Source: an uncultured Gammaproteobacteria bacterium (lineage in GTDB: Bacteria; Patescibacteriota; Microgenomatia; Levybacterales; GWA1-39-11). From it: 64,000 nucleotides of DNA. The notes under the pieces are model-generated. The model saw nothing but the letters and a program-made list of their open reading frames with translations, had not been told where the DNA came from and did not search any database. Numbering within the stretch: position 1 is the stretch's first letter; every line of letters begins with the position of its first letter. Of the stretch, positions 4,784-64,000 are shown in pieces. The stretch spans positions 75,919 to 139,918 of the forward strand of contig CAZIAP010000003.1 of NCBI GenBank assembly GCA_964537315.1, read 5' to 3'. Made by a program: the position numbers and the translations under genes.

Positions 4784-6523
4784 ATGGAAATTACCATAAT
4801 CGTTTTAGGCTTACTATTCTTCTCAAGCATCATCCTCTCTGGTGTGGTTATTCATCTATTACGCCGTGATGATCAAAAGAAAGCAGAGTTGGGTCTTCAA
4901 AAAAGAGAAGCGACTCGTAAGTTTTACGAAGCCAAAGTACTACAGGAAATTTCAGAACAAATAGGATATTCCTTGACAGGGAAGTCGGTCGCAGAAACTA
5001 TCATACGTTCCTTTGAAAATTTGTATGGTGTCTCTTGTGTTACATATGTGCTGATCGAAAATCATTCGATAATTCAAAAATCAGTCTTAAAAGAAGCTAT
5101 TGGTCAAAAGTATGTCGACAAGATACATCAAGTATCACTTAACTCGCTGTATGCTTTGGAAGAACCAGTTAAAGGATATCATGTTGCTGTACAAGTTCAA
5201 CAGAGCAAAGAGATAAAAAGCTATATTGCTTTACATTTTGATCCACTTCCTCAGTCATACTTTACAGTACCTTTAGTTATAAATAATACTTGTGTAGGGG
5301 TAATTACTGTTTCTTCTCGACTGCGGGATGCATTTTCTAAAGAGGACATGGATATGGTATACAAAGTAGTTAAACAAGCAGTAAAAGCGACAGAGCGAAT
5401 GGAGAGTCTTATTCAGGCTGAAAACAGCAGAATGATTAACCTAGTTTCCAGTATTCCTACCCCTGCAATTTTATTTGTAAAAGAAGGCAATAGGCTTAAA
5501 ATATCTGCCGCAAACCCAATTGCGACAGAGATCCTCAAGCTCCCTGCAAATCCATCTATTGATGATATCGTATGGAGTGTTGAGGGGAACTTAGATCTGC
5601 ATAAGCTGATCGAAGAAGTATATGAAGGGGGTAAGAGCGTCTTTTTGAAAGAGGTAGCTTTGAAAAACCGTTACTACAAAGTTTATATCAATCCAGTGTA
5701 TACGATTACCCAGGACTCAGTTGTAGGGGCAACACTGTCCCTACTTGACGTAACGTTAGAAATGGAGTCAGAGAAGCTAAGGGAGAAGTTTACCAATATG
5801 GTAGTACACGAACTGAGAGCTCCAATGACCTCTATAAAGGGAGGTGCAGGACTGTTATTAAAGGGTACGTTGTCTAAAGAGGATACTGAAAAAATGCTTC
5901 ATATTATCTCTGATTCCTCAGAGCGTATGTTGACACAGATTAATGATCTCCTTGATGCTGCAAAACTTGAAGCTGGTAAATTTGCTATCGCACCTGCGCG
6001 GGCAAATATTAATGAAATAGTTCAGACAAAAGTGGATAGCTTTTCATACCTCGCGTCCACTAAGCAGATTACTCTTACATGTGAACTAGATAAGTCAATT
6101 GAAGAGTTTAATTTTGATAAGATGCGAATTGATCAGGTAATCACCAATTTGATATCAAACAGTCTGAAGTTCACTCAAACTAACGGTCACATTACGATCA
6201 AAACTGAGAATAAAAACAATGAAGTGGTAGTATCTGTAGTGGATGATGGAATGGGAGTTCCTGCAGGAAAACAAAATCTGTTATTTGTACCTTTCAGTCA
6301 GATGCAGAGCGCGTTTAGAAGAGATGGTTCAGGACTTGGATTATATATCTCAAGAGGAATTATAGAGTCACACGGAGGTAAAATTTGGATGAATTCCCAA
6401 GAAGGTAAAGGTACAACTGTAAGCTTTTCTATTCCTACAAACATAAAACCTGACTCAGAATCACTGACTCCACCGCACGTTCCTTCACAGCCCATTATGC
6501 CACGGGAAAAAGTAGTGAACTGA
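4784..6523 (+). CDS. sensor histidine kinase (one TM helix, sensor region, HisKA + HATPase_c)
   Basis: H-box HELRAPMTSIKGG. N/G boxes DDGMGVPAGK and GSGLGLYISRGIIESHGGKIWMNSQEGKGTTVSF. Confidence 0.85.
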   Translation: MEITIIVLGLLFFSSIILSGVVIHLLRRDDQKKAELGLQKREATRKFYEAKVLQEISEQIGYSLTGKSVAETIIRSFENLYGVSCVTYVLIENHSIIQKSVLKEAIGQKYVDKIHQVSLNSLYALEEPVKGYHVAVQVQQSKEIKSYIALHFDPLPQSYFTVPLVINNTCVGVITVSSRLRDAFSKEDMDMVYKVVKQAVKATERMESLIQAENSRMINLVSSIPTPAILFVKEGNRLKISAANPIATEILKLPANPSIDDIVWSVEGNLDLHKLIEEVYEGGKSVFLKEVALKNRYYKVYINPVYTITQDSVVGATLSLLDVTLEMESEKLREKFTNMVVHELRAPMTSIKGGAGLLLKGTLSKEDTEKMLHIISDSSERMLTQINDLLDAAKLEAGKFAIAPARANINEIVQTKVDSFSYLASTKQITLTCELDKSIEEFNFDKMRIDQVITNLISNSLKFTQTNGHITIKTENKNNEVVVSVVDDGMGVPAGKQNLLFVPFSQMQSAFRRDGSGLGLYISRGIIESHGGKIWMNSQEGKGTTVSFSIPTNIKPDSESLTPPHVPSQPIMPREKVVN

Positions 6524-6530
6524 TCTCTGT

Positions 6531-8051
6531 TTATTGTATAAATTTTTCAAGCAGTACCTGTTTGAGCTCTTGATTTAACCCATCATACCCAAGAGCCCAG
6601 ATCGCTACGCCTTGTAGACCTTTATTAAGTACAAAATCATATTTGAGTCCTAGTGACCGTGCGTTGTCAAAATGCGCCGTAAATTTACGGTCTGTATCGG
6701 GATCTTTATAAGAAAAGTAAGGGGTCTGACTAGTGCTGTTCCATTGTAGAGTGACATTTTTGCTCATATCTGATAGCTGGGCATAAGAGATCGCTTTCCC
6801 GGGCTCACCAGTGTCTGGCCAGGCATATCCGTAATAAGGTACAGCAAGTATTAGCTTATCAGCTGAAACTCTTTCAAGATAGCTTTGTATAAATCCTGCA
6901 ATTCCCATAGGCCCTTCAAGAGGTGCTACAGGCCCTGCAGAACCCTTTGGCGTATGAATATCGTATCCCATGATAATAAATGCGTCTAAGTGGTCTTCTA
7001 GAAGCGATATCTCAAAGAAATCATTACGTGCCCCTGCAGTTACGTAGGTATCGACAGTCAGTAGTGCATCCGGTACTTGTCTCTTAAGTTCCTCGTTAAG
7101 ATTCGCGATTAGACGAATAAACCCTTGTTTGGTTTTTTCTGGCGCTACACCGATATACTCAAAATCTATATTTATTCCATCGAGGGATTTACTTTGAACA
7201 AGCTGCACAGCATTTGAAATAAATCTTTCTTGAGCTTGGTCAGACGTGGTTACACTCTCTATATTTGTATTATCAAACGCTTTAATAGTAACTAACACCT
7301 TAATTTTACGCTTCTTGACCCGTGCGAGAAATGAGTTTAATTTTTTATCATTCCACATCTTCCAACCTAGGTCAGGATTTTCTCCTCGGCTTATCATAAT
7401 ATTTCCCTTCCCGTCTGTTTCAAGGCCGAACAAATTTATTGACGTAAGCCCTTGAATATCTATTTGCTCCTCTCGTTCAAGCATCCAATAAGGGAAAAAG
7501 CCAACAACTTCCTTAGTTGGCTCTCCAGCGTATTTCAGAGTAATATTTGTAGCAGGGAAGGAAAAAACAGTATCCGGATTAAGCGGAGTCTGATTAGCAT
7601 ATACCACGTCTGGAGCAAGGACATCAAAAGGCTGATTTATGCTTGCAACTTCAACTATCTGATCTGAAAGAGGTAAGGACTTGTCAGTGAATGATACTCT
7701 GTGAAGTGTAAGTAGACTACCTACTGAAAAGATCACAATTATTGACGCTACTGTAGCTGTTCTTTTGTTAATTTTTGCTTTTAACTTTTGCTTAATCGAA
7801 GGCTCTTCTGGTTGGATTTCTTGAGTTTTTGGAGTTGAAGGAGTGAACTGGATTAAATTATCACTTTCAATCTCGGACAGAGCTTGGTGGAACTCGTCTT
7901 CAGTCACACCGATTTCCCTAGCATAGTCAACTGCTTGTTCGAACGAACTAGAAGGGTGGGAAATAATCCACTCTTTTATAAGTCTTATGCGGACAGGGTT
8001 ATTCATATGATTAAACGCATAAACTATATGCTGTAATTTCAGTATGCACAA
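6531..8051 (-). CDS. membrane-anchored glycoside hydrolase family 18-like protein
   Basis: GH18 catalytic-type motif LDGINIDFEY (DxxNxDxE). Cytoplasmic N-terminus, one TM helix (VASIIVIFSVGSLLTL), then the extracellular domain. The true start may be an internal Met. Confidence 0.7.
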   Translation of the reverse strand: MCILKLQHIVYAFNHMNNPVRIRLIKEWIISHPSSSFEQAVDYAREIGVTEDEFHQALSEIESDNLIQFTPSTPKTQEIQPEEPSIKQKLKAKINKRTATVASIIVIFSVGSLLTLHRVSFTDKSLPLSDQIVEVASINQPFDVLAPDVVYANQTPLNPDTVFSFPATNITLKYAGEPTKEVVGFFPYWMLEREEQIDIQGLTSINLFGLETDGKGNIMISRGENPDLGWKMWNDKKLNSFLARVKKRKIKVLVTIKAFDNTNIESVTTSDQAQERFISNAVQLVQSKSLDGINIDFEYIGVAPEKTKQGFIRLIANLNEELKRQVPDALLTVDTYVTAGARNDFFEISLLEDHLDAFIIMGYDIHTPKGSAGPVAPLEGPMGIAGFIQSYLERVSADKLILAVPYYGYAWPDTGEPGKAISYAQLSDMSKNVTLQWNSTSQTPYFSYKDPDTDRKFTAHFDNARSLGLKYDFVLNKGLQGVAIWALGYDGLNQELKQVLLEKFIQ

Positions 8052-55036: not shown

Positions 55037-56836
55037 ATGCGTAAAAAAGTACGAATAGGTCCTGCATTTTCAGACTCAATCTCAACAGGTAAAGTACAGA
55101 GAAGAAAGGAGTCAAAAAGTATTTTGAGTCCTGAAGTCCTTTCATTACTTCCTCTTATATGTCTTGTACTAGTTTCAGGATTTTTTTTAGTACGACTCTT
55201 TTATCTGCAAGTCATACGAAGTGATTACTACCGAGCTTTGTCTGATGAAAATAGACTCAGAACATTAATAATTCCTGCGCCTCGCGGTATTTTGTTTGAT
55301 CGTAATGGGGAACCGCTTGTAAATAACACACCTGCGTTCAAGGTGCTTGATAATGAACAAAAAGTGCAGTTTCTTGGTCAAGAAGATGCCTTAGAGCGTA
55401 TTGCCAAGGGAGAAGAAATTATCAGTGATATTCAGAGAAAATATATTCATGGTGATGTTTTCGCACATGCATTGGGATATATCGGACAGATTTCAGAAGA
55501 TGAGATTGCACAGCACAAGTTTCAAGGATATGCATTAACTGATTTTGTCGGTAAGTTTGGGCTTGAGGCGCAATATGAGTCGGTTCTTCATGGGAAAAAT
55601 GGAAGAGAGCTTTATGAAGTTGATGCTGTGGGTGAGAAAGTGAGATTTTTGGGAAAAGATGCGCCTGTTGCAGGAAAAAATATACATACTACTTTGGATA
55701 TTGAATTGCAAAAGGCGGTACACGAAGCAATGAAGGAAGCATCTAAAGGTGCAGTTGTAGTATCAGACCCTCGTGATGGAGGAATACTGGCAATATATTC
55801 AAAGCCAAGTTTTGATCCCAACTTATTTACACATAACAAGGAGTATGAACCTGTTGGCGATTACAAAAGTGTAGAAGAAATACTTACTGATGGAGAGAAT
55901 CAGCCACTATTGAACCGTGCAATTGGGGGTGTGTATCCGCCTGGATCAACATATAAGTTGGTTAGTGCGATTGCAGCTCTTGAAACAGGAGCAATGAAGA
56001 GAGATACCATTGTCGAAGACACAGGTATTTTAAGAGTAGGTGCGTTTTCATTTGGAAATTGGTATTACTTGCAGCATGGAAGAAAAGATGGTGATGTAGA
56101 TGTAGTAAAGGCAATAGAGCGGTCAAATGATATTTATTTTTATAAAGCAGCAGAAGCAACGGGTATAAAAAGTCTTGCCGACTGGTCAAAAAAGTTTGGA
56201 CTTGGACAAAAACTATCTATTGATTTATCAGGAGAGCAAGCGGGAACAGTACCTGACGAGGCATGGAAACAAAAAGTAATTGGAGAACCGTGGTATCTGG
56301 GCGACAACTATAATACAGGAATCGGACAGGGATACTTACTAGCTACACCACTGCAGGTTAATATGTTTACAGTGCCTTTTGCCAACGGAGGGACGCTTTA
56401 TCAGCCTCATTTAGTAAAAGATCAAAAAAAAGAGATCAGGTCTGACTTTATGAAACAGGATCATATTGACGCAATTAGAGAGGGTATGCGGCGCAGCTGT
56501 CATCCTGATGGCGGAGTAGCTTTCCCATTTTTTGACTTTAAGGTAACCAACGAGATGCTGTCAATCGATGGTAGGAACTTTACTGAGGTGGCTGCAACCT
56601 CGCTGAGCGGGGCAAGCCAAAGCGCACAGATGACTAAAGTGACTGTAGGGTGTAAAACAGGTACATCCGAGTCAGGAGGAGGAAGGTTACCACATGCGTG
56701 GATTACCGTGATTGCACCATACTATGATCCTGAAGTAGTAGTAACAGTACTTGTCGAAACAGCGGGCGAAGGATCGGCAGTAGCAGCTCCTATCGCCAAA
56801 GAAATTTTAGAGGCGTATTTTGAGGGGAAGGATTAG
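55037..56836 (+). CDS. mrdA: penicillin-binding protein 2 (class B transpeptidase)
   Basis: STYK (SxxK), SND (SxN) and KTGTS (KTG) motifs, N-terminal TM and dimerisation domain. Start at the ATG at 55037 just after the mreD stop. Confidence 0.9.
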   Translation: MRKKVRIGPAFSDSISTGKVQRRKESKSILSPEVLSLLPLICLVLVSGFFLVRLFYLQVIRSDYYRALSDENRLRTLIIPAPRGILFDRNGEPLVNNTPAFKVLDNEQKVQFLGQEDALERIAKGEEIISDIQRKYIHGDVFAHALGYIGQISEDEIAQHKFQGYALTDFVGKFGLEAQYESVLHGKNGRELYEVDAVGEKVRFLGKDAPVAGKNIHTTLDIELQKAVHEAMKEASKGAVVVSDPRDGGILAIYSKPSFDPNLFTHNKEYEPVGDYKSVEEILTDGENQPLLNRAIGGVYPPGSTYKLVSAIAALETGAMKRDTIVEDTGILRVGAFSFGNWYYLQHGRKDGDVDVVKAIERSNDIYFYKAAEATGIKSLADWSKKFGLGQKLSIDLSGEQAGTVPDEAWKQKVIGEPWYLGDNYNTGIGQGYLLATPLQVNMFTVPFANGGTLYQPHLVKDQKKEIRSDFMKQDHIDAIREGMRRSCHPDGGVAFPFFDFKVTNEMLSIDGRNFTEVAATSLSGASQSAQMTKVTVGCKTGTSESGGGRLPHAWITVIAPYYDPEVVVTVLVETAGEGSAVAAPIAKEILEAYFEGKD

Positions 56837-58005
56837 TTTGTAAATGAAAATTCTGAGGTTGTAAGCGTAGAGACTATAGCATTAACTTTAGCATAATATA
56901 TACTTGCATTGTTACCAACGCTAATATTATATATATCTTGAGTATCTAGAATAAAAACTTCTAAAGAATCTCCTGATTGACTTCCACCATGTGTAACTGT
57001 ATAAATCGACTTACCATTTTTTTCTACCCGTTGAACATTGGGACCAAGGCCTTCATACAGTTTATATAGTGATGTTTCAGTAAAAATATTTAGTGGGATA
57101 TTCACAAATTTGGAGATTGACAAAGTTTCAGCAAAGTAAGGATCTACTTTGTAACCAACAGGATCGATAGTTTGTAAATGACCTAACTGAACCATGTATT
57201 CAGGATTAGCTTGAATAGGAAAAGGTGATTTTTTAATTACAGGATTTTTAGCTTCTTGAACAATCCAGTCTGGATCGTATTTAAAACTTATTTCGTATTC
57301 CTGGTTTGAGTATGATTTCCAGTTTGATACATCTATTTGTTGTTTTTCGAACGAAATTACTGGAGGGTTAAATAAATTAAAACTTAATAGTATTTTATTA
57401 AAAATTTCATCAGTAATATTGCCGCTTCCGGTTGGAGTAACATCAGCATGCCATACATGTAAATATGTTCCATAAAGTATTCTGGTAAATATATCTTTAG
57501 TGTTTTTTTCCCTAGAAGTAACACTTGTTTTCAGAGCTGTATATCCTCCTAATTCTGTATATGTAAACTCATGATCTTGGGATACTTGTAAATGGTGTAT
57601 GCCATAATCTTGAAGTGTCATATCTTCATCTGAATGTGTTTCAATAACTATGTAATCACCATCAGGTACTTGTTTTCGCAAGATTATTAAGTTTGTTTTT
57701 TCTTCTAATGAAAAATCAGATGGGTATTTAAACTCAAAACCAAATTCTTTATTCCTATACGTTTTCCAGTCTGCAGTAGGATCACCTACTGTAGTTGTTG
57801 TTTTCGACATTGCAGGTGTGGAAGAGGAGACTTTTCTCTCTTTGCCTAAATAAATAGCTACTGATGATACTAACGCGATGGTAAGTAGAGCAATGAACAA
57901 AACAAACGCAAGTTTAGGGATGTTATGGTGAGGTTCTGAAGTTTGAGTGGGCGCATTGAAGCTATCTAAATCTGTCGATGGTTTTATTTGATTATAATCT
58001 TCCAT
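56833..58005 (-). CDS. N-terminally anchored extracellular protein with internal tandem duplication
   Basis: Signal-anchor HHNIPKLAFVLFIALLTIAL. Two related modules begin DWKTYRNKEFGFEFKYP and NWKSYSNQEYEISFKYD. Confidence 0.6.
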   Translation of the reverse strand: MEDYNQIKPSTDLDSFNAPTQTSEPHHNIPKLAFVLFIALLTIALVSSVAIYLGKERKVSSSTPAMSKTTTTVGDPTADWKTYRNKEFGFEFKYPSDFSLEEKTNLIILRKQVPDGDYIVIETHSDEDMTLQDYGIHHLQVSQDHEFTYTELGGYTALKTSVTSREKNTKDIFTRILYGTYLHVWHADVTPTGSGNITDEIFNKILLSFNLFNPPVISFEKQQIDVSNWKSYSNQEYEISFKYDPDWIVQEAKNPVIKKSPFPIQANPEYMVQLGHLQTIDPVGYKVDPYFAETLSISKFVNIPLNIFTETSLYKLYEGLGPNVQRVEKNGKSIYTVTHGGSQSGDSLEVFILDTQDIYNISVGNNASIYYAKVNAIVSTLTTSEFSFTN

Positions 58006-58013
58006 AAAATCAA

Positions 58014-59792
58014 TTATTCACACTTGGTACTTCCTTCTGAGTTTTCACATTTCATGAGTATTTCTTTCTCTTTGTCTTTAACGATCTTCTGAATTTCAAA
58101 CTCAGAATATCCCCCATCACCCATTCCGCAATAAAAATAATACTCATCATTTCTAGATACTTGCATAACACTACATCCGGAGTAAATTTGTATTCCACCG
58201 TGGTTGATTGGGCCTATATGATAAGGGTCTGATTCAGTATCAGTAAATAGGAATAAATGAAGAACATAATGTTCTGATTCAAAATATGATCTCGTAACTA
58301 TTGCCCTACCGTCCTCAAGTTTACATGCTAGCGAATCTGGAGAAAACTGCTTATCTCTTTGTTCATGTAAATTGAGTCCAGAAGTATATTCAATCATAGC
58401 TATAATTTCATTGTCGGTAAATGAATGATTTCTATATGCACTTCCGTCTGAATACGTGGATGTGTACGAATATTCTGGAGGTTGAGTATCAGAAATTTTA
58501 ATATTCTGGCATGTTAATCCTACTAGACTAGAATTAAACTCATCAGTAAGTTCATGGGGAATATTTATGAATTCTTTATAGTCTGAAAGATCAAATAATC
58601 TTTTTTCAGGTTGTTGTGGGAAAGGAGAAGTATTTACAATTTCATAAGCAGATTTTGGTAATAGAGAATTTATTTTTACTTCCTCCTTTGTATCCACATT
58701 TAGAATAAAGAATTCATGAAATTGCTCATCCCTGGTATCTTTAATCATTACAATGTTTTTGGAATCGACCCACCATTTAGATCTATTAGTGGTAGATATT
58801 TGGGAAGTAGTTTTTGAGTTAGTGTCATAGATTGAAAGACCATTGAGCTCTAATGAAATATAATTACCATCAGGAGATATACGTGGCCAAGAGTTATCTC
58901 CCCAGTTTTTACTACTATATATTATTTCACTTTCACCAGTAGGAAAATCTGAATATCTAACATGAGAATATTCAAACCCTCCACTATTTCCAGTTTCTCC
59001 TGCGGCATACACCCATTTATTTCCGTCTATAGATATATCTAATTGATACCCAAATCCTAAACTATGTACGTCACTTAAAGGATCAAAATGCAAAGTGTTT
59101 TCTGAAACATTTTGGATATCAAAGAGATAATAGTTATTTTCTCTCTCATAAAAAATGCCTGTGGGGGTAAACTCGATAATCCTATTAATATCGGGCAGTT
59201 CCTGTGTTTTTCCACTTGTGATATCAAATGCGAAGTATTTGACTTTAGGAAAAAGGTAATCTTGATTATCAGGACCAAGGGGTAGTTCAACCGAATAAAT
59301 TAAGTATTTACTATTCTTTGACCACCCATTGATTTTATAGACTTTTTCGTTGGTGTCTATCCGTTTGGTTTTATTGCTCTCATGAGAAATTAAAAAAATT
59401 TCTTGTGACTTCTCATCAATAACCGCACTATAATACATATCAAAAGATGGAATTACACTATCTAGTCGAGAGGCTCGAACTTCTTGAATTTCAGATTGAT
59501 TCATCTTTTTTTTAGTATAATTATATATGTAGATTTTCCCATTCTTGTTGTTTACGAGTGGTATGCCTATGTTCGTAGAAGAGAAGTCATCCCAGATAGT
59601 TTTTTGGGGTAGGGTTATCGCTTTCTTTTCTGACAATTGAAAGTAGGCAAATATTATAGAAGCCAAAAGAAGAAGTAGAATGAATAAAATAAATACAAAT
59701 TTAGGGATGTTATTGTGAGATTTTGGGATTTGAGGAGATGGATTAGGGACAGGATTCGGAGAAGATATTGGTGATTGTTGATCTTCTTCCAT
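58014..59792 (-). CDS. N-terminally anchored extracellular protein with TolB/PD40-like beta-propeller repeats
   Basis: Signal-anchor HNNIPKFVFILFILLLLLASIIF, paralogous to the downstream gene. Repeated WPRISPDGNYISLE-type blades. Confidence 0.6.
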   Translation of the reverse strand: MEEDQQSPISSPNPVPNPSPQIPKSHNNIPKFVFILFILLLLLASIIFAYFQLSEKKAITLPQKTIWDDFSSTNIGIPLVNNKNGKIYIYNYTKKKMNQSEIQEVRASRLDSVIPSFDMYYSAVIDEKSQEIFLISHESNKTKRIDTNEKVYKINGWSKNSKYLIYSVELPLGPDNQDYLFPKVKYFAFDITSGKTQELPDINRIIEFTPTGIFYERENNYYLFDIQNVSENTLHFDPLSDVHSLGFGYQLDISIDGNKWVYAAGETGNSGGFEYSHVRYSDFPTGESEIIYSSKNWGDNSWPRISPDGNYISLELNGLSIYDTNSKTTSQISTTNRSKWWVDSKNIVMIKDTRDEQFHEFFILNVDTKEEVKINSLLPKSAYEIVNTSPFPQQPEKRLFDLSDYKEFINIPHELTDEFNSSLVGLTCQNIKISDTQPPEYSYTSTYSDGSAYRNHSFTDNEIIAMIEYTSGLNLHEQRDKQFSPDSLACKLEDGRAIVTRSYFESEHYVLHLFLFTDTESDPYHIGPINHGGIQIYSGCSVMQVSRNDEYYFYCGMGDGGYSEFEIQKIVKDKEKEILMKCENSEGSTKCE

Positions 59793-59830: not shown

Positions 59831-60250
59831 CTATTCCCCTGGACACGCGGCGAACTCACAATTGGGTCCTTCTCGTCCGACAGATGTGCCGTCAGGACAT
59901 ATTTTCGCATCCATAGTACATACTACTTGCTCTTCATCAGTTGCTTCGTGGGGAGGAAACACTTGCTCTTCAGGAGGAGCTACTTCATCGTTTATGTTTT
60001 CTGTTTGACCAGGCGTAAGCGGAACATTGTTGCTTGAGTTGTCAACAGATAGGTATGCGAAAGAAGCTACAGATAGGAGTATAAGAATGCCGAAAATTAT
60101 TAAAGCTACCTTCAGTATACTGCTTTTTCTTTTAACACCTGAATGTTCAGTTAATAGCTTTTCTTCTTCTGGGGGTTGGATTAATTTTTCTTCAGGAGGA
60201 GCTTCAAGCAGTTTCTCTTCTTCGTTTAGGTCTTGGTTATTTTTATCCAT
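59831..60250 (-). CDS. N-terminally anchored small extracellular protein with Pro/Glu repeats and Cys-rich C-terminus
   Basis: TM ILKVALIIFGILILLSVASFAYL. PPEEKL repeats. Tail CTMDAKICPDGTSVGREGPNCEFAACPGE. Confidence 0.5.
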   Translation of the reverse strand: MDKNNQDLNEEEKLLEAPPEEKLIQPPEEEKLLTEHSGVKRKSSILKVALIIFGILILLSVASFAYLSVDNSSNNVPLTPGQTENINDEVAPPEEQVFPPHEATDEEQVVCTMDAKICPDGTSVGREGPNCEFAACPGE

Positions 60251-61572: not shown

Positions 61573-61737
61573 ATGTTGGTAGTTATTATTTTTATGGCAG
61601 TGGCAATGTTTTTTGTACCTGTCCTTGTAGTGGCGTATCTTTTTGATCAAGGAAAGGGAGGAATTGCTTTTAGCGTTGCATTCGCGACACTTTTTCTAAA
61701 TATTCCACTTTGGGTTCTGATTGGACAACTTCAATAG
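61573..61737 (+). CDS. small membrane protein (54 aa, below the track ORF cutoff)
   Basis: AAGGAGG RBS 6 nt upstream of ATG. Two hydrophobic segments. Confidence 0.35.
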   Translation: MLVVIIFMAVAMFFVPVLVVAYLFDQGKGGIAFSVAFATLFLNIPLWVLIGQLQ

Positions 61738-61750
61738 CGAGGAGACTTAA

Positions 61751-61969
61751 ATGATTTGGTTATGGACTATTAGTGGCGCGTTGTTGTGTGGTCTATGCAT
61801 ATTCCTCAATGGAAGGATTAATACACATGCGTATAAGAACCCTGACCTTGATCACGTTCAAATACTTCGAACAAAGTATTCGCATCAGCGCCTATGCGCA
61901 GTATCTATGATAGGGTTTATGGTGTTCGCACTTGCAACTGTAACCCTCTTTTACTTTTTGATTAGCTAG
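61751..61969 (+). CDS. small membrane protein (72 aa)
   Basis: ORF starting 13 nt after the previous small ORF. Two hydrophobic segments. Confidence 0.35.
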   Translation: MIWLWTISGALLCGLCIFLNGRINTHAYKNPDLDHVQILRTKYSHQRLCAVSMIGFMVFALATVTLFYFLIS

Positions 61970-62053
61970 GTAACATGAATTATCTCAGAGACAGTAAAAT
62001 ATATCTTGTCAGTCAATAACTTGCTCCCTGTCTATACCTGATAGGGAGCATAA

Positions 62054-62773
62054 CTACACTGTCCCAATATGATCTGCACGAGGATTTGCTGGATCATATA
62101 GATTTACCTCAAATATAGGTAAATCTTTAGCAATTATTTGTAATGTTATACTTAACTGCATAGTGGCAATTCTTTGAAAGTCTTCGTACACAACGTTGTC
62201 CATATTTAACTCTTCAATCAGCTGTTTCATAAATAAATCATCACGTTTTTTATCGTATATAAAGTACATTTGACTATCATCTTTGGAGTTTAGTGTGTGT
62301 TCCTTATCATTTATTATTAGGAAGCCTGCTTCATCATGTGGTCCGTCTAAAGTTTCCACTTCAGTAGGGTTATCCGGATTATTTCTCAATTGCTTAACCG
62401 CTTCTTGTACATCTTGAGGACTAACTCCGTATCTTGAAGCATTTTCTTCGATTGCTGAATTCAGAACGTGACTACAACCTATTGAGAATGCGGCATTTGG
62501 ATCTTCGTTTTTGTCGGTATGCAAGTAAAAATTTCCACCTATCTTAATAATAGCCTTGTATATCGAGTCAACGCATTCTTGAACTGACATACCTAACTTC
62601 TGTTCATAGTTATATCCAAGCATAGCTATAACGTAACCTAAATCTGCGCCTGGACGGGCAATCATGCCACTAGAAGTCTCTTTGTTGTTATATCTTCCTG
62701 AAATACATCTTCTACCTGGTTTTGCGGGAATGAGGTTATCCTGAATGAAAGTATTAACAGCGGAGAAATCCAT
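62054..62773 (-). CDS. hypothetical protein (239 aa)
   Basis: ORF 26 nt downstream of the preceding minus-strand gene. No recognised motif. Confidence 0.55.
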   Translation of the reverse strand: MDFSAVNTFIQDNLIPAKPGRRCISGRYNNKETSSGMIARPGADLGYVIAMLGYNYEQKLGMSVQECVDSIYKAIIKIGGNFYLHTDKNEDPNAAFSIGCSHVLNSAIEENASRYGVSPQDVQEAVKQLRNNPDNPTEVETLDGPHDEAGFLIINDKEHTLNSKDDSQMYFIYDKKRDDLFMKQLIEELNMDNVVYEDFQRIATMQLSITLQIIAKDLPIFEVNLYDPANPRADHIGTV

Positions 62774-62799
62774 GTATATTATTATGAGAATATACCAGA

Positions 62800-64000
62800 T
62801 TAAATTGCAAGTTCTTTTGCTACATCACGGATCTCTCTTGTCTTACTATCGATCAAAACAGGGACTGGTACGAGTTTTCCTGTTTTGATCCAATTCATAA
62901 TATCTGGATCACTTTTTATTTCTCTGAATAGCACTCGTAATTGTCCACGCGCACGTTCTAAGATCTCAGGAGTAGCACCGTTTGAAATTGAGTTTGATAG
63001 GAAGATGATATATGGAGGCTCAGTTGCCTTAATCGATTCCATAAGTCCAGTTTGGATTTTAATATGATCTATTGCTTCTGGATAAGAGGAAACCATCGCT
63101 CCGAATACTTGGACTTCAGGATCAAATTCTCCTACGATTGCACCATCCATAGAAATTGATTGATATCCCTCTCCGTGATGAACAAAAGGGTGTGTGTGTT
63201 CGTGTGATTCTTGGCGTTCATAAACTCCCGAGGTTCGTTGGAAGGCGATATTTCGGGATAGGGTATAAAAAAGTGCATTTTTTTGTTCTTCTGTATAGTC
63301 TTGGAGATAAGTATTGCTGTATCTTTCAAAAGAATTTTTAAATGATTCATTATTCATTAGATACTCAGTCGTGCTCATTACTTTTGTTTCAAGTTCTATG
63401 ATTTTATCTACATTTGTAAACTCATCTTTCATTGATCCAGCCTCACCTGCGATCTCAGTGAGTTCAGAGTTGATGGTTTGGTCATCTACAATATTTCGGG
63501 TAATATCAGTTGTAAATAATTCATTATCTGTGCCATATCCTAGAAGAATCCCCATAGTATCTGTATCATAGACAGCACTCATCGCTACTTTCTTCAATGG
63601 TGTAACTTTATTTGCTTCAGCTGCCCGGTTGTAAAGATCTGTAAATGCTGTTGCACTTTTGTCATGTATTTCAAGGTTTGCTGCTATTAAATCACGGTTT
63701 GTAACCTCACCGTCTAAATACATTTTCTTCATTTTTCCACATCCATGATCAGGTAACTCTTTGAAATTGTCTTCGGAAAGACGTCTGTGCTCAGAAAGAC
63801 TGGTGTGTGAAACAAGTATTTGGAGCATTTGAGGATTTTCTTTTTCAGTTCTTTCGATTATGGCTTCAGTAAGACGAGAACTTTCTAGTTCCAGTGTACC
63901 ATCAAGAGGCGACTCCCTTAGTTCGATGATTCCAGCTGCTGTCTCCCAGGTATTACCTGTTAGACCTAATAGATGAATGTCAGGAATTCGTCCATCAATG
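62800..64000 (-). CDS. hypothetical protein, 5'-partial (at least 400 aa; N-terminus lies beyond the window edge)
   Basis: The reading frame upstream of the track start (63828) stays open to base 64000 (…IDGRIPDIHLLGLTGNTWETAAGIIELRES…QMLQILVSH…). Contains DHG and HEHTHPFVHHGEG His-rich stretches. Confidence 0.6.
   Translation of the reverse strand, partial: IDGRIPDIHLLGLTGNTWETAAGIIELRESPLDGTLELESSRLTEAIIERTEKENPQMLQILVSHTSLSEHRRLSEDNFKELPDHGCGKMKKMYLDGEVTNRDLIAANLEIHDKSATAFTDLYNRAAEANKVTPLKKVAMSAVYDTDTMGILLGYGTDNELFTTDITRNIVDDQTINSELTEIAGEAGSMKDEFTNVDKIIELETKVMSTTEYLMNNESFKNSFERYSNTYLQDYTEEQKNALFYTLSRNIAFQRTSGVYERQESHEHTHPFVHHGEGYQSISMDGAIVGEFDPEVQVFGAMVSSYPEAIDHIKIQTGLMESIKATEPPYIIFLSNSISNGATPEILERARGQLRVLFREIKSDPDIMNWIKTGKLVPVPVLIDSKTREIRDVAKELAI

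Follow-up and report, generated by a model that had tools for sequence, protein, structure and literature searches.

What is encoded by two adjacent minus-strand genes whose products are named by no curated family model? The question is raised by positions 62,054 to 64,000 of the 64,000-nucleotide stretch analysed here (the window; contig CAZIAP010000003.1), where an initial annotation had described a two-gene operon of unfamiliar proteins running off the edge and had proposed an unknown enzymatic pair. We consider it probable that this operon encodes two cytoplasmic carbonic anhydrase (CA)-like metalloenzymes with Cys-His-Cys (zinc-type) sites: a large protein built like CsoSCA, the CA of the alpha-carboxysome shell, and a small protein with the fold of the diatom zeta-class enzyme CDCA1. 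The proposed pair stands as a two-gene operon whose products have predicted metal sites and are not named by family models, but both products turn out to be remote kin of two CA classes. The parts of the operon are as follows.

62800-64000, minus strand: 3' 1201 nt of the large gene (residues 93-491 and stop); CsoSCA-like, beta-class, predicted single-site pseudo-dimer
62774-62799, minus strand: intergenic spacer of 26 nt between the large and small genes
62054-62773, minus strand: small gene, 239 residues; predicted zeta-class (CDCA1-like) fold of a remodelled 'Ser variant' type

As the initial annotation had recognised, the large frame is incomplete: from its TAA stop (62802-62800) it is open to base 64000, with 399 codons inside the window, and the 342-residue open reading frame (ORF) listed at 62800-63828 is an artefact of an internal ATG that represents a C-terminal piece of the larger gene. 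The sequence past base 64000 was recovered from the Logan contig L001, which carries an identical small gene and extends beyond the window edge; the complete large gene on this contig (961-2436) encodes 491 residues and is identical to P0001, which places its start ~275 nt past base 64000. A promoter-like TTGAAA-16-TATAAT element (11/12 matches) lies 22 nt upstream of this start. The window ends on the third base of the Cys92 codon (base 64000), so that its edge (63997-64000) splits a CIDGR motif; the translation of the window accordingly began with 'IDGR', and the most diagnostic residue was hidden. The 239-residue gene begins 26 nt downstream of the large one, also as first described, and the corresponding spacers of relatives measure 16, 20 and 84 nt.

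The size of the two families and their strongly conserved motifs indicate that both genes are real and not chance ORFs. A word-indexed search gave 14 clusters for the large family, and a search of 1.84 billion proteins gave 155 representatives clustered at 50% identity, of which 102 had E <= 1e-30; the small family has at least 175 clusters. Both are labelled 'hypothetical protein' in the sources that name them, and the named hosts of homologues include Candidatus Levybacteria/Levyibacteriota and Saccharimonadales, of the Patescibacteria/candidate phyla radiation (CPR) group.

By sequence, the absence of a recognisable family holds: neither protein, and neither of two tiny membrane-peptide ORFs beside the operon, gave more than noise in Pfam and NCBIfam scans, and phmmer comparison of both proteins with all PDB sequences gave nothing significant. 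Scans of 24 additional large-family members were equally unproductive. Searches of PDB sequences with small profiles (A1, A2) returned nothing relevant; it was the broader profiles A3 and A4 that reached CDCA1 and CsoSCA PDB sequences, weakly. The best matches of A4, to designed armadillo repeats, were set aside as spurious repeat matches. By fold, the claim gives way, as both proteins have CA folds.

The large protein and CsoSCA

The AlphaFold2 model of the large protein is confident, and its structural matches (score, then aligned length) are headed by a wide margin by CsoSCA.

8thm_A, CsoSCA, the Cyanobium carboxysome shell CA: 20.7; 348 (10% identity)
1ddz_B, the tandem-duplicated beta-CA of Porphyridium: 13.4; 287
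About 15 chains of single-domain beta-CAs, carbonyl sulfide (COS) hydrolase, carbon disulfide (CS2) hydrolase and LCIB: 7.7-11.2; 103-155

These matches identify the large protein as a fused pair of beta-CA-like domains that follows a helical region, and the three-part architecture of CsoSCA (N-terminal helical region, catalytic beta-CA domain, second beta-CA-like domain) is reproduced in full.

Conservation was assessed across 125 relatives of full length, each standing for one cluster at 50% identity. The best-conserved residues of the family are C92, D94 and R96 (98% each) together with H157 and C179 (100% each), followed by H367 (97%), E369 (96%) and H362 (82%). As read from the sequence, C92-x-D94-x-R96, H157 and C179 is the beta-CA signature, and both conservation and alignment match these residues to the Cys2His ligands and Asp-Arg dyad expected of a CsoSCA-type (type I beta-CA) site. 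Their positions in the window, with that of the conserved C-terminal motif, are:

63988-64000, minus strand: Cys92-x-Asp94-x-Arg96, (C)IDGR; predicted first metal ligand and catalytic dyad, aligned to 'CADGR' of 8thm_A
63805-63807, minus strand: His157 codon (AHTS); predicted second ligand, aligned to the His of 'LYHFSS' in 8thm_A
63739-63750, minus strand: D176-H177-G178-C179; Cys179 is the predicted third ligand, 'dhgCgam' being aligned to 'HEGCAAH'
63169-63192, minus strand: H362-P-F-V-H-H367-G-E369; conserved His/Glu motif that opens the C-terminal pseudo-catalytic domain and presumably has a role there

In the model, His157 lies at the C-terminal end of a strand (150-158) and Cys179 at the N-terminus of a helix (180-187). 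A 98-sequence profile of the large family matches five distinct CsoSCA PDB sequences (E = 0.033 for 8thm_A; 0.3-0.8 for 2fgy, 9g4t, 9skx and 9skr), and its alignment to 8thm_A pairs 'iiiCiDGRi' with 'ITPCADGRL' and 'laHtsssdp.dhgCgam' with 'LYHFSSLDPqHEGCAAH'. The second of these stretches reproduces the unusual CsoSCA spacing, in which His is followed after about 10 residues by H-x-G-C. Most large-family relatives have this short His-Cys spacing; an insertion of 12 residues (about EHRRLSEDNFKE) between His157 and Cys179 (window 63742-63804, residues 158-178) is limited to the window's clade and two others (P0008, P0011).

Residues 260-491 show no conserved Cys and no CxDxR motif across the 125 relatives, the metal site of the second beta-CA-like domain having apparently been lost; this points to one site per pseudo-dimer, as in CsoSCA. 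No internal repeat signal was found when the catalytic and C-terminal halves of the family were compared with hhalign.

Two stretches of the large protein to which the initial annotation had drawn attention, DHGCG (residues 176-180) and the His-rich HEHTHPFVHHGEG (358-370), can be placed in this framework, and both were found as described. DHGCG does contribute to the predicted metal site, through Cys179, but Asp176 is not conserved; His177, which recurs in CsoSCA ('HEGC'), shows moderate conservation. In the His-rich stretch, H362, H367 and E369 are conserved, whereas the HEHTH run is a variable insertion of low model confidence: its HEHT portion (63193-63204) directly precedes H362, and the predicted local distance difference test score (pLDDT) is below 50 at residues 356-360.

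The small protein and CDCA1

The AlphaFold2 model of the small protein is also confident (pLDDT 89.3; predicted template modelling score 0.89), its chain adopts in this model the two-lobe fold of CDCA enzymes, and a Foldseek search with it yielded six chains of CDCA1, each at probability 1.00, and no other match. The window protein itself has no match to the Pfam CDCA model (PF18484), to which three distant members of its family, and eight of 46 sequences in a wider sample, show sub-threshold matches (best 25.5 against a cutoff of 29.2 bits). A profile of the 46 sequences aligns with 3bob_A by pairing 'KCvdGRY' with 'KCVDGRG', 'FymHtdh' with 'PSVHGDH' and 'ligCgH' with 'MLGCGF', and so spans the metal ligands of CDCA1 (two Cys and one His) as well as its Asp/Arg dyad (PMC4413181; PMC8217695). 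The equivalent elements of the window protein are:

62693-62707, minus strand: C23-I24-S25-G26-R27; equivalent to C-V-D-G-R of CDCA1, with Cys23 as a predicted ligand
62519-62521, minus strand: His85 codon (LHTD); predicted ligand, family-invariant, aligned to the His of 'VHGD' in 3bob_A
62468-62476, minus strand: C100-S101-H102; Cys100 is a predicted ligand, 'ligCgH' being aligned to 'MLGCGF'

The ligand positions C23, H85 and C100 are invariant in the small family, and IGCSHV (residues 98-103), a Cys-His stretch singled out from the start, is likely to be functional because it contains the predicted ligand Cys100. C-V-D-G-R and G-C-G-H are carried by 111 of 121 family members, and it is from these motifs that the window protein departs. 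Position 25 is Asp in the same number of relatives and Ser in nine, and the residue after the second Cys is Gly in all 111 Asp-type members and Ser or Arg in all nine of the Ser type. Three positions are affected:

Ile24: Val in the canonical 111; Ile, Phe or Thr in the nine-cluster subclade; Val474 in CDCA1-R3
Ser25: Asp in the canonical 111; Ser in the subclade (9/9); Asp475 in CDCA1-R3
Ser101: Gly in the canonical 111; Ser or Arg in the subclade (9/9); Gly536 in CDCA1-R3

In CDCA1-R3, Val474 lines the CO2 pocket, and Asp475 and Gly536 form hydrogen bonds with the metal-bound water (PMC8217695); the contact of Gly536, whose position is taken by Ser101, is made through the backbone. Among the CO2-pocket positions, Val474 corresponds to Ile24 and Phe537 to His102, a residue invariant in the small family, and Phe603, Thr627 and Leu631 fall outside the reliable alignment. 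The other invariant residues (C23, R27, D44, H85, C100, H102, E148, Y173, D174, R177, D178 and Q206) are all kept in the subclade. Since the Ser pattern is held at ~50-64% identity within the subclade, it looks like selected retuning and not decay.

At the sequence level, no homology between the large and small families is detectable, as hhalign aligned only a 10-residue CxDGR stretch (probability 3.5%).

Gene pairing and possible functions

Comparison of gene neighbourhoods, which the initial annotation had suggested, shows the two families to be direct neighbours in six or more divergent lineages, with either gene coming first and in differing contexts. The pairs include:

Window and L001: large then small; gap of 26 nt
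L002-L005: large then small; 84 nt; large protein ~82% identical; metagenome-assembled genome GCA_964448725.1 and two Logan contigs
L010: large then small; 16 nt; large protein 60% identical; small protein of the Asp type
JGI contig: large then small; 20 nt; large protein 41% identical
L016: small then large (reversed); 67 nt; large protein 40% identical; context of ribonucleotide reductase, GreA and LeuRS
L020: large then zeta-CA-like (with C-G-F, as in the L016 partner); overlapping reading frames; from a metagenome scan

The scan in question, made with the A1 profile, yielded 23 loci, and a scan of genome contigs found one related genome only. The 249-residue partner in L016 is recognised by the Pfam CDCA model (52.3 bits against the cutoff of 29.2; E = 7e-14) and by phmmer against CDCA1 PDB sequences (E = 3e-4). 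Within the clade of the window, rplJ and dprA flank the module in every case. Both families are rare, and their pairing in both orders and in different contexts seems hard to explain by synteny alone.

From the folds, the motifs, their conservation and this gene linkage we infer metal binding, CO2 hydration and cooperation of the two proteins, the most likely function, as far as sequence can tell, being that of a cytoplasmic metal-dependent module for CO2/HCO3- (or COS/CS2) hydration. The large protein would bind one Zn2+ (or another divalent metal) per chain through Cys92, His157 and Cys179, and the Asp94-Arg96 dyad would orient a metal-bound hydroxide for attack on CO2 to give bicarbonate, with the reverse reaction also possible, following the type I beta-CA mechanism described for CsoSCA (PMC11086599). 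The small protein would be a single-repeat relative of CDCA1 whose zeta-type metal site still forms, with altered catalysis, specificity or role. Because their genes are neighbours in several divergent lineages, in either order, the two proteins may well work together, as a complex or in successive small-molecule steps; both are presumably cytoplasmic, since no hydrophobic N-terminal segment is seen in either sequence.

Several points weigh against this interpretation. Both proteins stay below every curated family threshold, and taken singly their sequence matches in the PDB are weak (E = 0.033 and 2.7). The predicted clustering of the ligands in three dimensions is deduced from motif and secondary-structure position in the models. 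The small protein lacks the catalytic Asp, and could have little CA activity or none; to our knowledge, this residue is retained by all characterised beta and zeta CAs. A reduced genome would have no obvious need for two CAs, and about nine well-flanked large-family loci have no zeta-like gene within 4 kb. In L006 a zeta-like gene is found 9 kb from the large gene, and in L013 the small gene stands alone. A tandem of small-family genes, both of the Asp type, occupies the same rplJ-dprA position in L011 (7164-8717), where no large gene is present.

Of the alternatives, the one that survives best, although we regard it as unlikely, makes the Ser-variant small protein a non-catalytic partner that would regulate the large enzyme, serve it as a scaffold or sense metal or bicarbonate, similar to the CA-like scaffold proteins that bind an active CA. 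Such a role would suit the loss of both the Asp and the water-binding Gly in nine of nine subclade members whose fold and other invariants are kept, and the location of those Ser variants whose surroundings can be seen (window, L002, L012 and L015), each of which directly follows a large or large-like gene. Strict retention of the three ligands, Arg27 and His102 points instead to a working metal centre, and Asp-type small proteins are paired as well (L010, the JGI contig, L016 and L020), so that pairing is independent of the loss of Asp.

In L012 and L015, the gene that precedes the Ser variant encodes a very divergent protein of ~540 residues (CMDGR ... SHIGCAA), which is split in the former (6332-7966; ORFs of 372 and 162 residues) and continuous in the latter (26-1414). 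It has the H-x-x-C spacing of canonical beta-CAs and matches the large-family profile weakly (E ~1e-9 in a small database; hhalign probability 9%), and it could represent a third CA-like family. A CGDAR/HEGIGC ORF pair in L012 (5104-6314), also considered as a third CA-like gene, was rejected for want of profile support.

Still less probable is a role of either protein, or of both, in hydrolysing COS or CS2 with release of H2S (and CO2), possibly as two enzymes in sequence (CS2 to COS to CO2 to HCO3-). Such hydrolases share the beta-CA fold and identical ligands, for which reason sequence cannot decide the substrate, and this too tempers the CA assignment; yet the best structural match, by its wide margin, is a true CA, and no sulfur-metabolism genes were seen in the neighbourhoods.

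The two tiny ORFs that the initial annotation had reported on the opposite strand (61573-61737 and 61751-61969, plus strand; 54 and 72 residues) are indeed present; small, hydrophobic and adjoining the operon, they would be the membrane partners if the large protein were the CA-like subunit of a vectorial, membrane-coupled CO2-uptake system resembling DabA/DabB. DabA is likewise beta-CA-like, with widely spaced His and Cys. We hold this to be highly improbable: the large protein has no Pfam match to DabA (DUF2309) and about half its size, no DabB-type membrane subunit occurs in any neighbourhood, and the tiny ORFs, encoded on the other strand, have no tblastn counterpart in L002-L014, being found only in the identical contig L001. 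This lack of conservation of the membrane ORFs effectively refutes the reading. Least credible of all is an unrelated novel enzyme pair in which the DHG and His-rich stretches form an alkaline-phosphatase/phosphomutase-like metal site: the stretches exist and H177, H362, H367 and E369 are conserved to varying degrees, but the conservation pattern and the CsoSCA profile alignment contradict such a site.

Known carbonic anhydrases and the surrounding sequence

Assignment of the operon to two CA-like proteins raises the matter of how far they differ from described members of their classes. CsoSCA (CsoS3; PDB 8THM, 2FGY; PF08936) is an alpha-carboxysome shell CA with which the large protein shares ~10% identity, and the latter lies outside every CsoSCA Pfam model: none matches at E <= 1 for the window fragment, P0001, P0008, P0013 and P0014, and none at E <= 0.01 in 20 further diverse large-family relatives. 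In contrast to CsoSCA, it has no RuBisCO, shell or CsoS2 genes nearby (neither RuBisCO nor carboxysome shell proteins were found among 20 window ORFs scanned), and its genomic neighbours are not those of a cso operon but rplJ, dprA, PBP2, mreC and similar genes. The large family moreover has its own conserved H367/E369 motif, to which the clade of the window adds the 12 extra residues that separate the His and Cys ligands; its hosts are CPR-like bacteria and not autotrophs, and it is frequently paired with a zeta-CA-like gene. 'Non-cso' orphan homologues of CsoSCA have already been described by Pulsford et al., as members of PF08936 (PMC11086599). Canonical beta-CAs and their COS/CS2 hydrolase offshoots (PF00484) are homodimers with an H-x-x-C spacing, whereas the large protein has no Pfam match to this family and is a fused, asymmetric pseudo-dimer with a different His/Cys arrangement.

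CDCA1 is the zeta-class cadmium/zinc CA of the diatom Thalassiosira weissflogii (PDB 3BOB, 3BOH, 3UK8, 7BEZ; PF18484) and consists of three tandem repeats, unlike the small protein, which is a bacterial, single-domain and, in our judgement, cytoplasmic protein below Pfam detection for PF18484. The spacing between the His and the second Cys is 15 in the small protein and 10 in CDCA1; the family has an invariant His after C-G where CDCA1 has a pocket Phe; and the window protein differs further by the changes of Asp to Ser, Gly to Ser and Val to Ile, with Arg27 kept.

We therefore rate the pair as a recurrent arrangement of genes from two CA subfamilies that have diverged far, the active site being remodelled in one of them, and not as a categorically new system. 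The homology that emerged to well-characterised enzymes, the outcome that the initial annotation had named as refuting its proposal, is remote (structure and profile) and leads to rare CA classes, not to a housekeeping family. No description of these two families, or of CsoSCA or zeta-CA in Patescibacteria/CPR, was found in the open-access papers that made up the literature searched; databases may already list bacterial members of PF18484.

Both CA classes are regarded as niche enzymes, CsoSCA being known from alpha-carboxysomes and a few orphan homologues and the zeta class from marine diatoms; here, deep relatives of both form sizeable families in small-genome uncultured bacteria with no carboxysome genes nearby. 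Their recurrent pairing suggests a functional coupling of two CA folds that is not described in the literature covered. More tentatively, the CsoSCA-like and zeta-CA-like proteins could serve CPR bacteria as a hitherto unrecognised two-component module for inorganic carbon (or COS/CS2), organised as a heteromeric enzyme or as a pathway of two steps, in which the Ser variant would have a new catalytic or regulatory role. If so, the 'diatom-only' zeta and 'carboxysome-only' CsoSCA classes would be deeply and widely rooted in uncultured bacteria, and diatoms could have obtained their enzyme from these. The locus bears in any case on the evolutionary origin of that cadmium enzyme and on CO2, bicarbonate or pH handling in episymbiotic bacteria; it names two gene families currently missed by annotation pipelines, offers new CA scaffolds for carbon-capture enzymology, and provides in the Ser-variant subclade a natural experiment on the need for Asp in the beta/zeta CA site.

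Genes of the window are typical for small-genome CPR-like bacteria (ComEC, DprA, sortase, PBP2, MreC and many family-less ORFs), with a G+C content of ~38% and seven tRNAs. In the related genome GCA_964448725.1, the one GTDB representative found to carry the pair, contig CAYVAJ010000008.1 contains rplJ-rplL without a following rpoB, a 23S-rRNA-IVS protein, and runs of family-less proteins of ~700 residues. The label 'uncultured Gammaproteobacteria' of this genome may be wrong, as its gene content and the names on homologues, on which the taxonomic placement is based, point to Patescibacteria/CPR.

Downstream of the operon, one further element was read directly from the sequence:

62023-62049, minus strand: hairpin GCTCCCT, 13-nt loop, AGGGAGC (7 bp, GC-rich)

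It begins 5 nt past the small-gene stop and was not called by a terminator scan; lacking a T-tract, it is at most a possible transcript end.

At distant large-family loci, a gene for a VIT1/CCC1-type iron/manganese transporter (PF01988 in L006) lies directly upstream of the large gene (L006, L007, L017, L018, L028 and L034), on the same strand and at a distance of 4-37 nt in five loci and 215 nt in L034; TGT, QueA and fmt are found near these loci. This neighbour could reflect lineage synteny or a link to metal handling. In L024/L025 (5980-6537), an ORF of 186 residues located ~600 nt downstream of the large gene matches the C-terminal zeta-like lobe only; it has no metal ligands and may be a truncated remnant.

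Beyond dprA, the window contains three consecutive, largely uncharacterised minus-strand ORFs (56833-59792 and 59831-60250) of 390 residues (with a PsbP_2-like N-terminus), 592 residues (no family) and 139 residues (no family), the last of which carries EE(E)KL repeats in its N-terminal half, followed by a hydrophobic segment.

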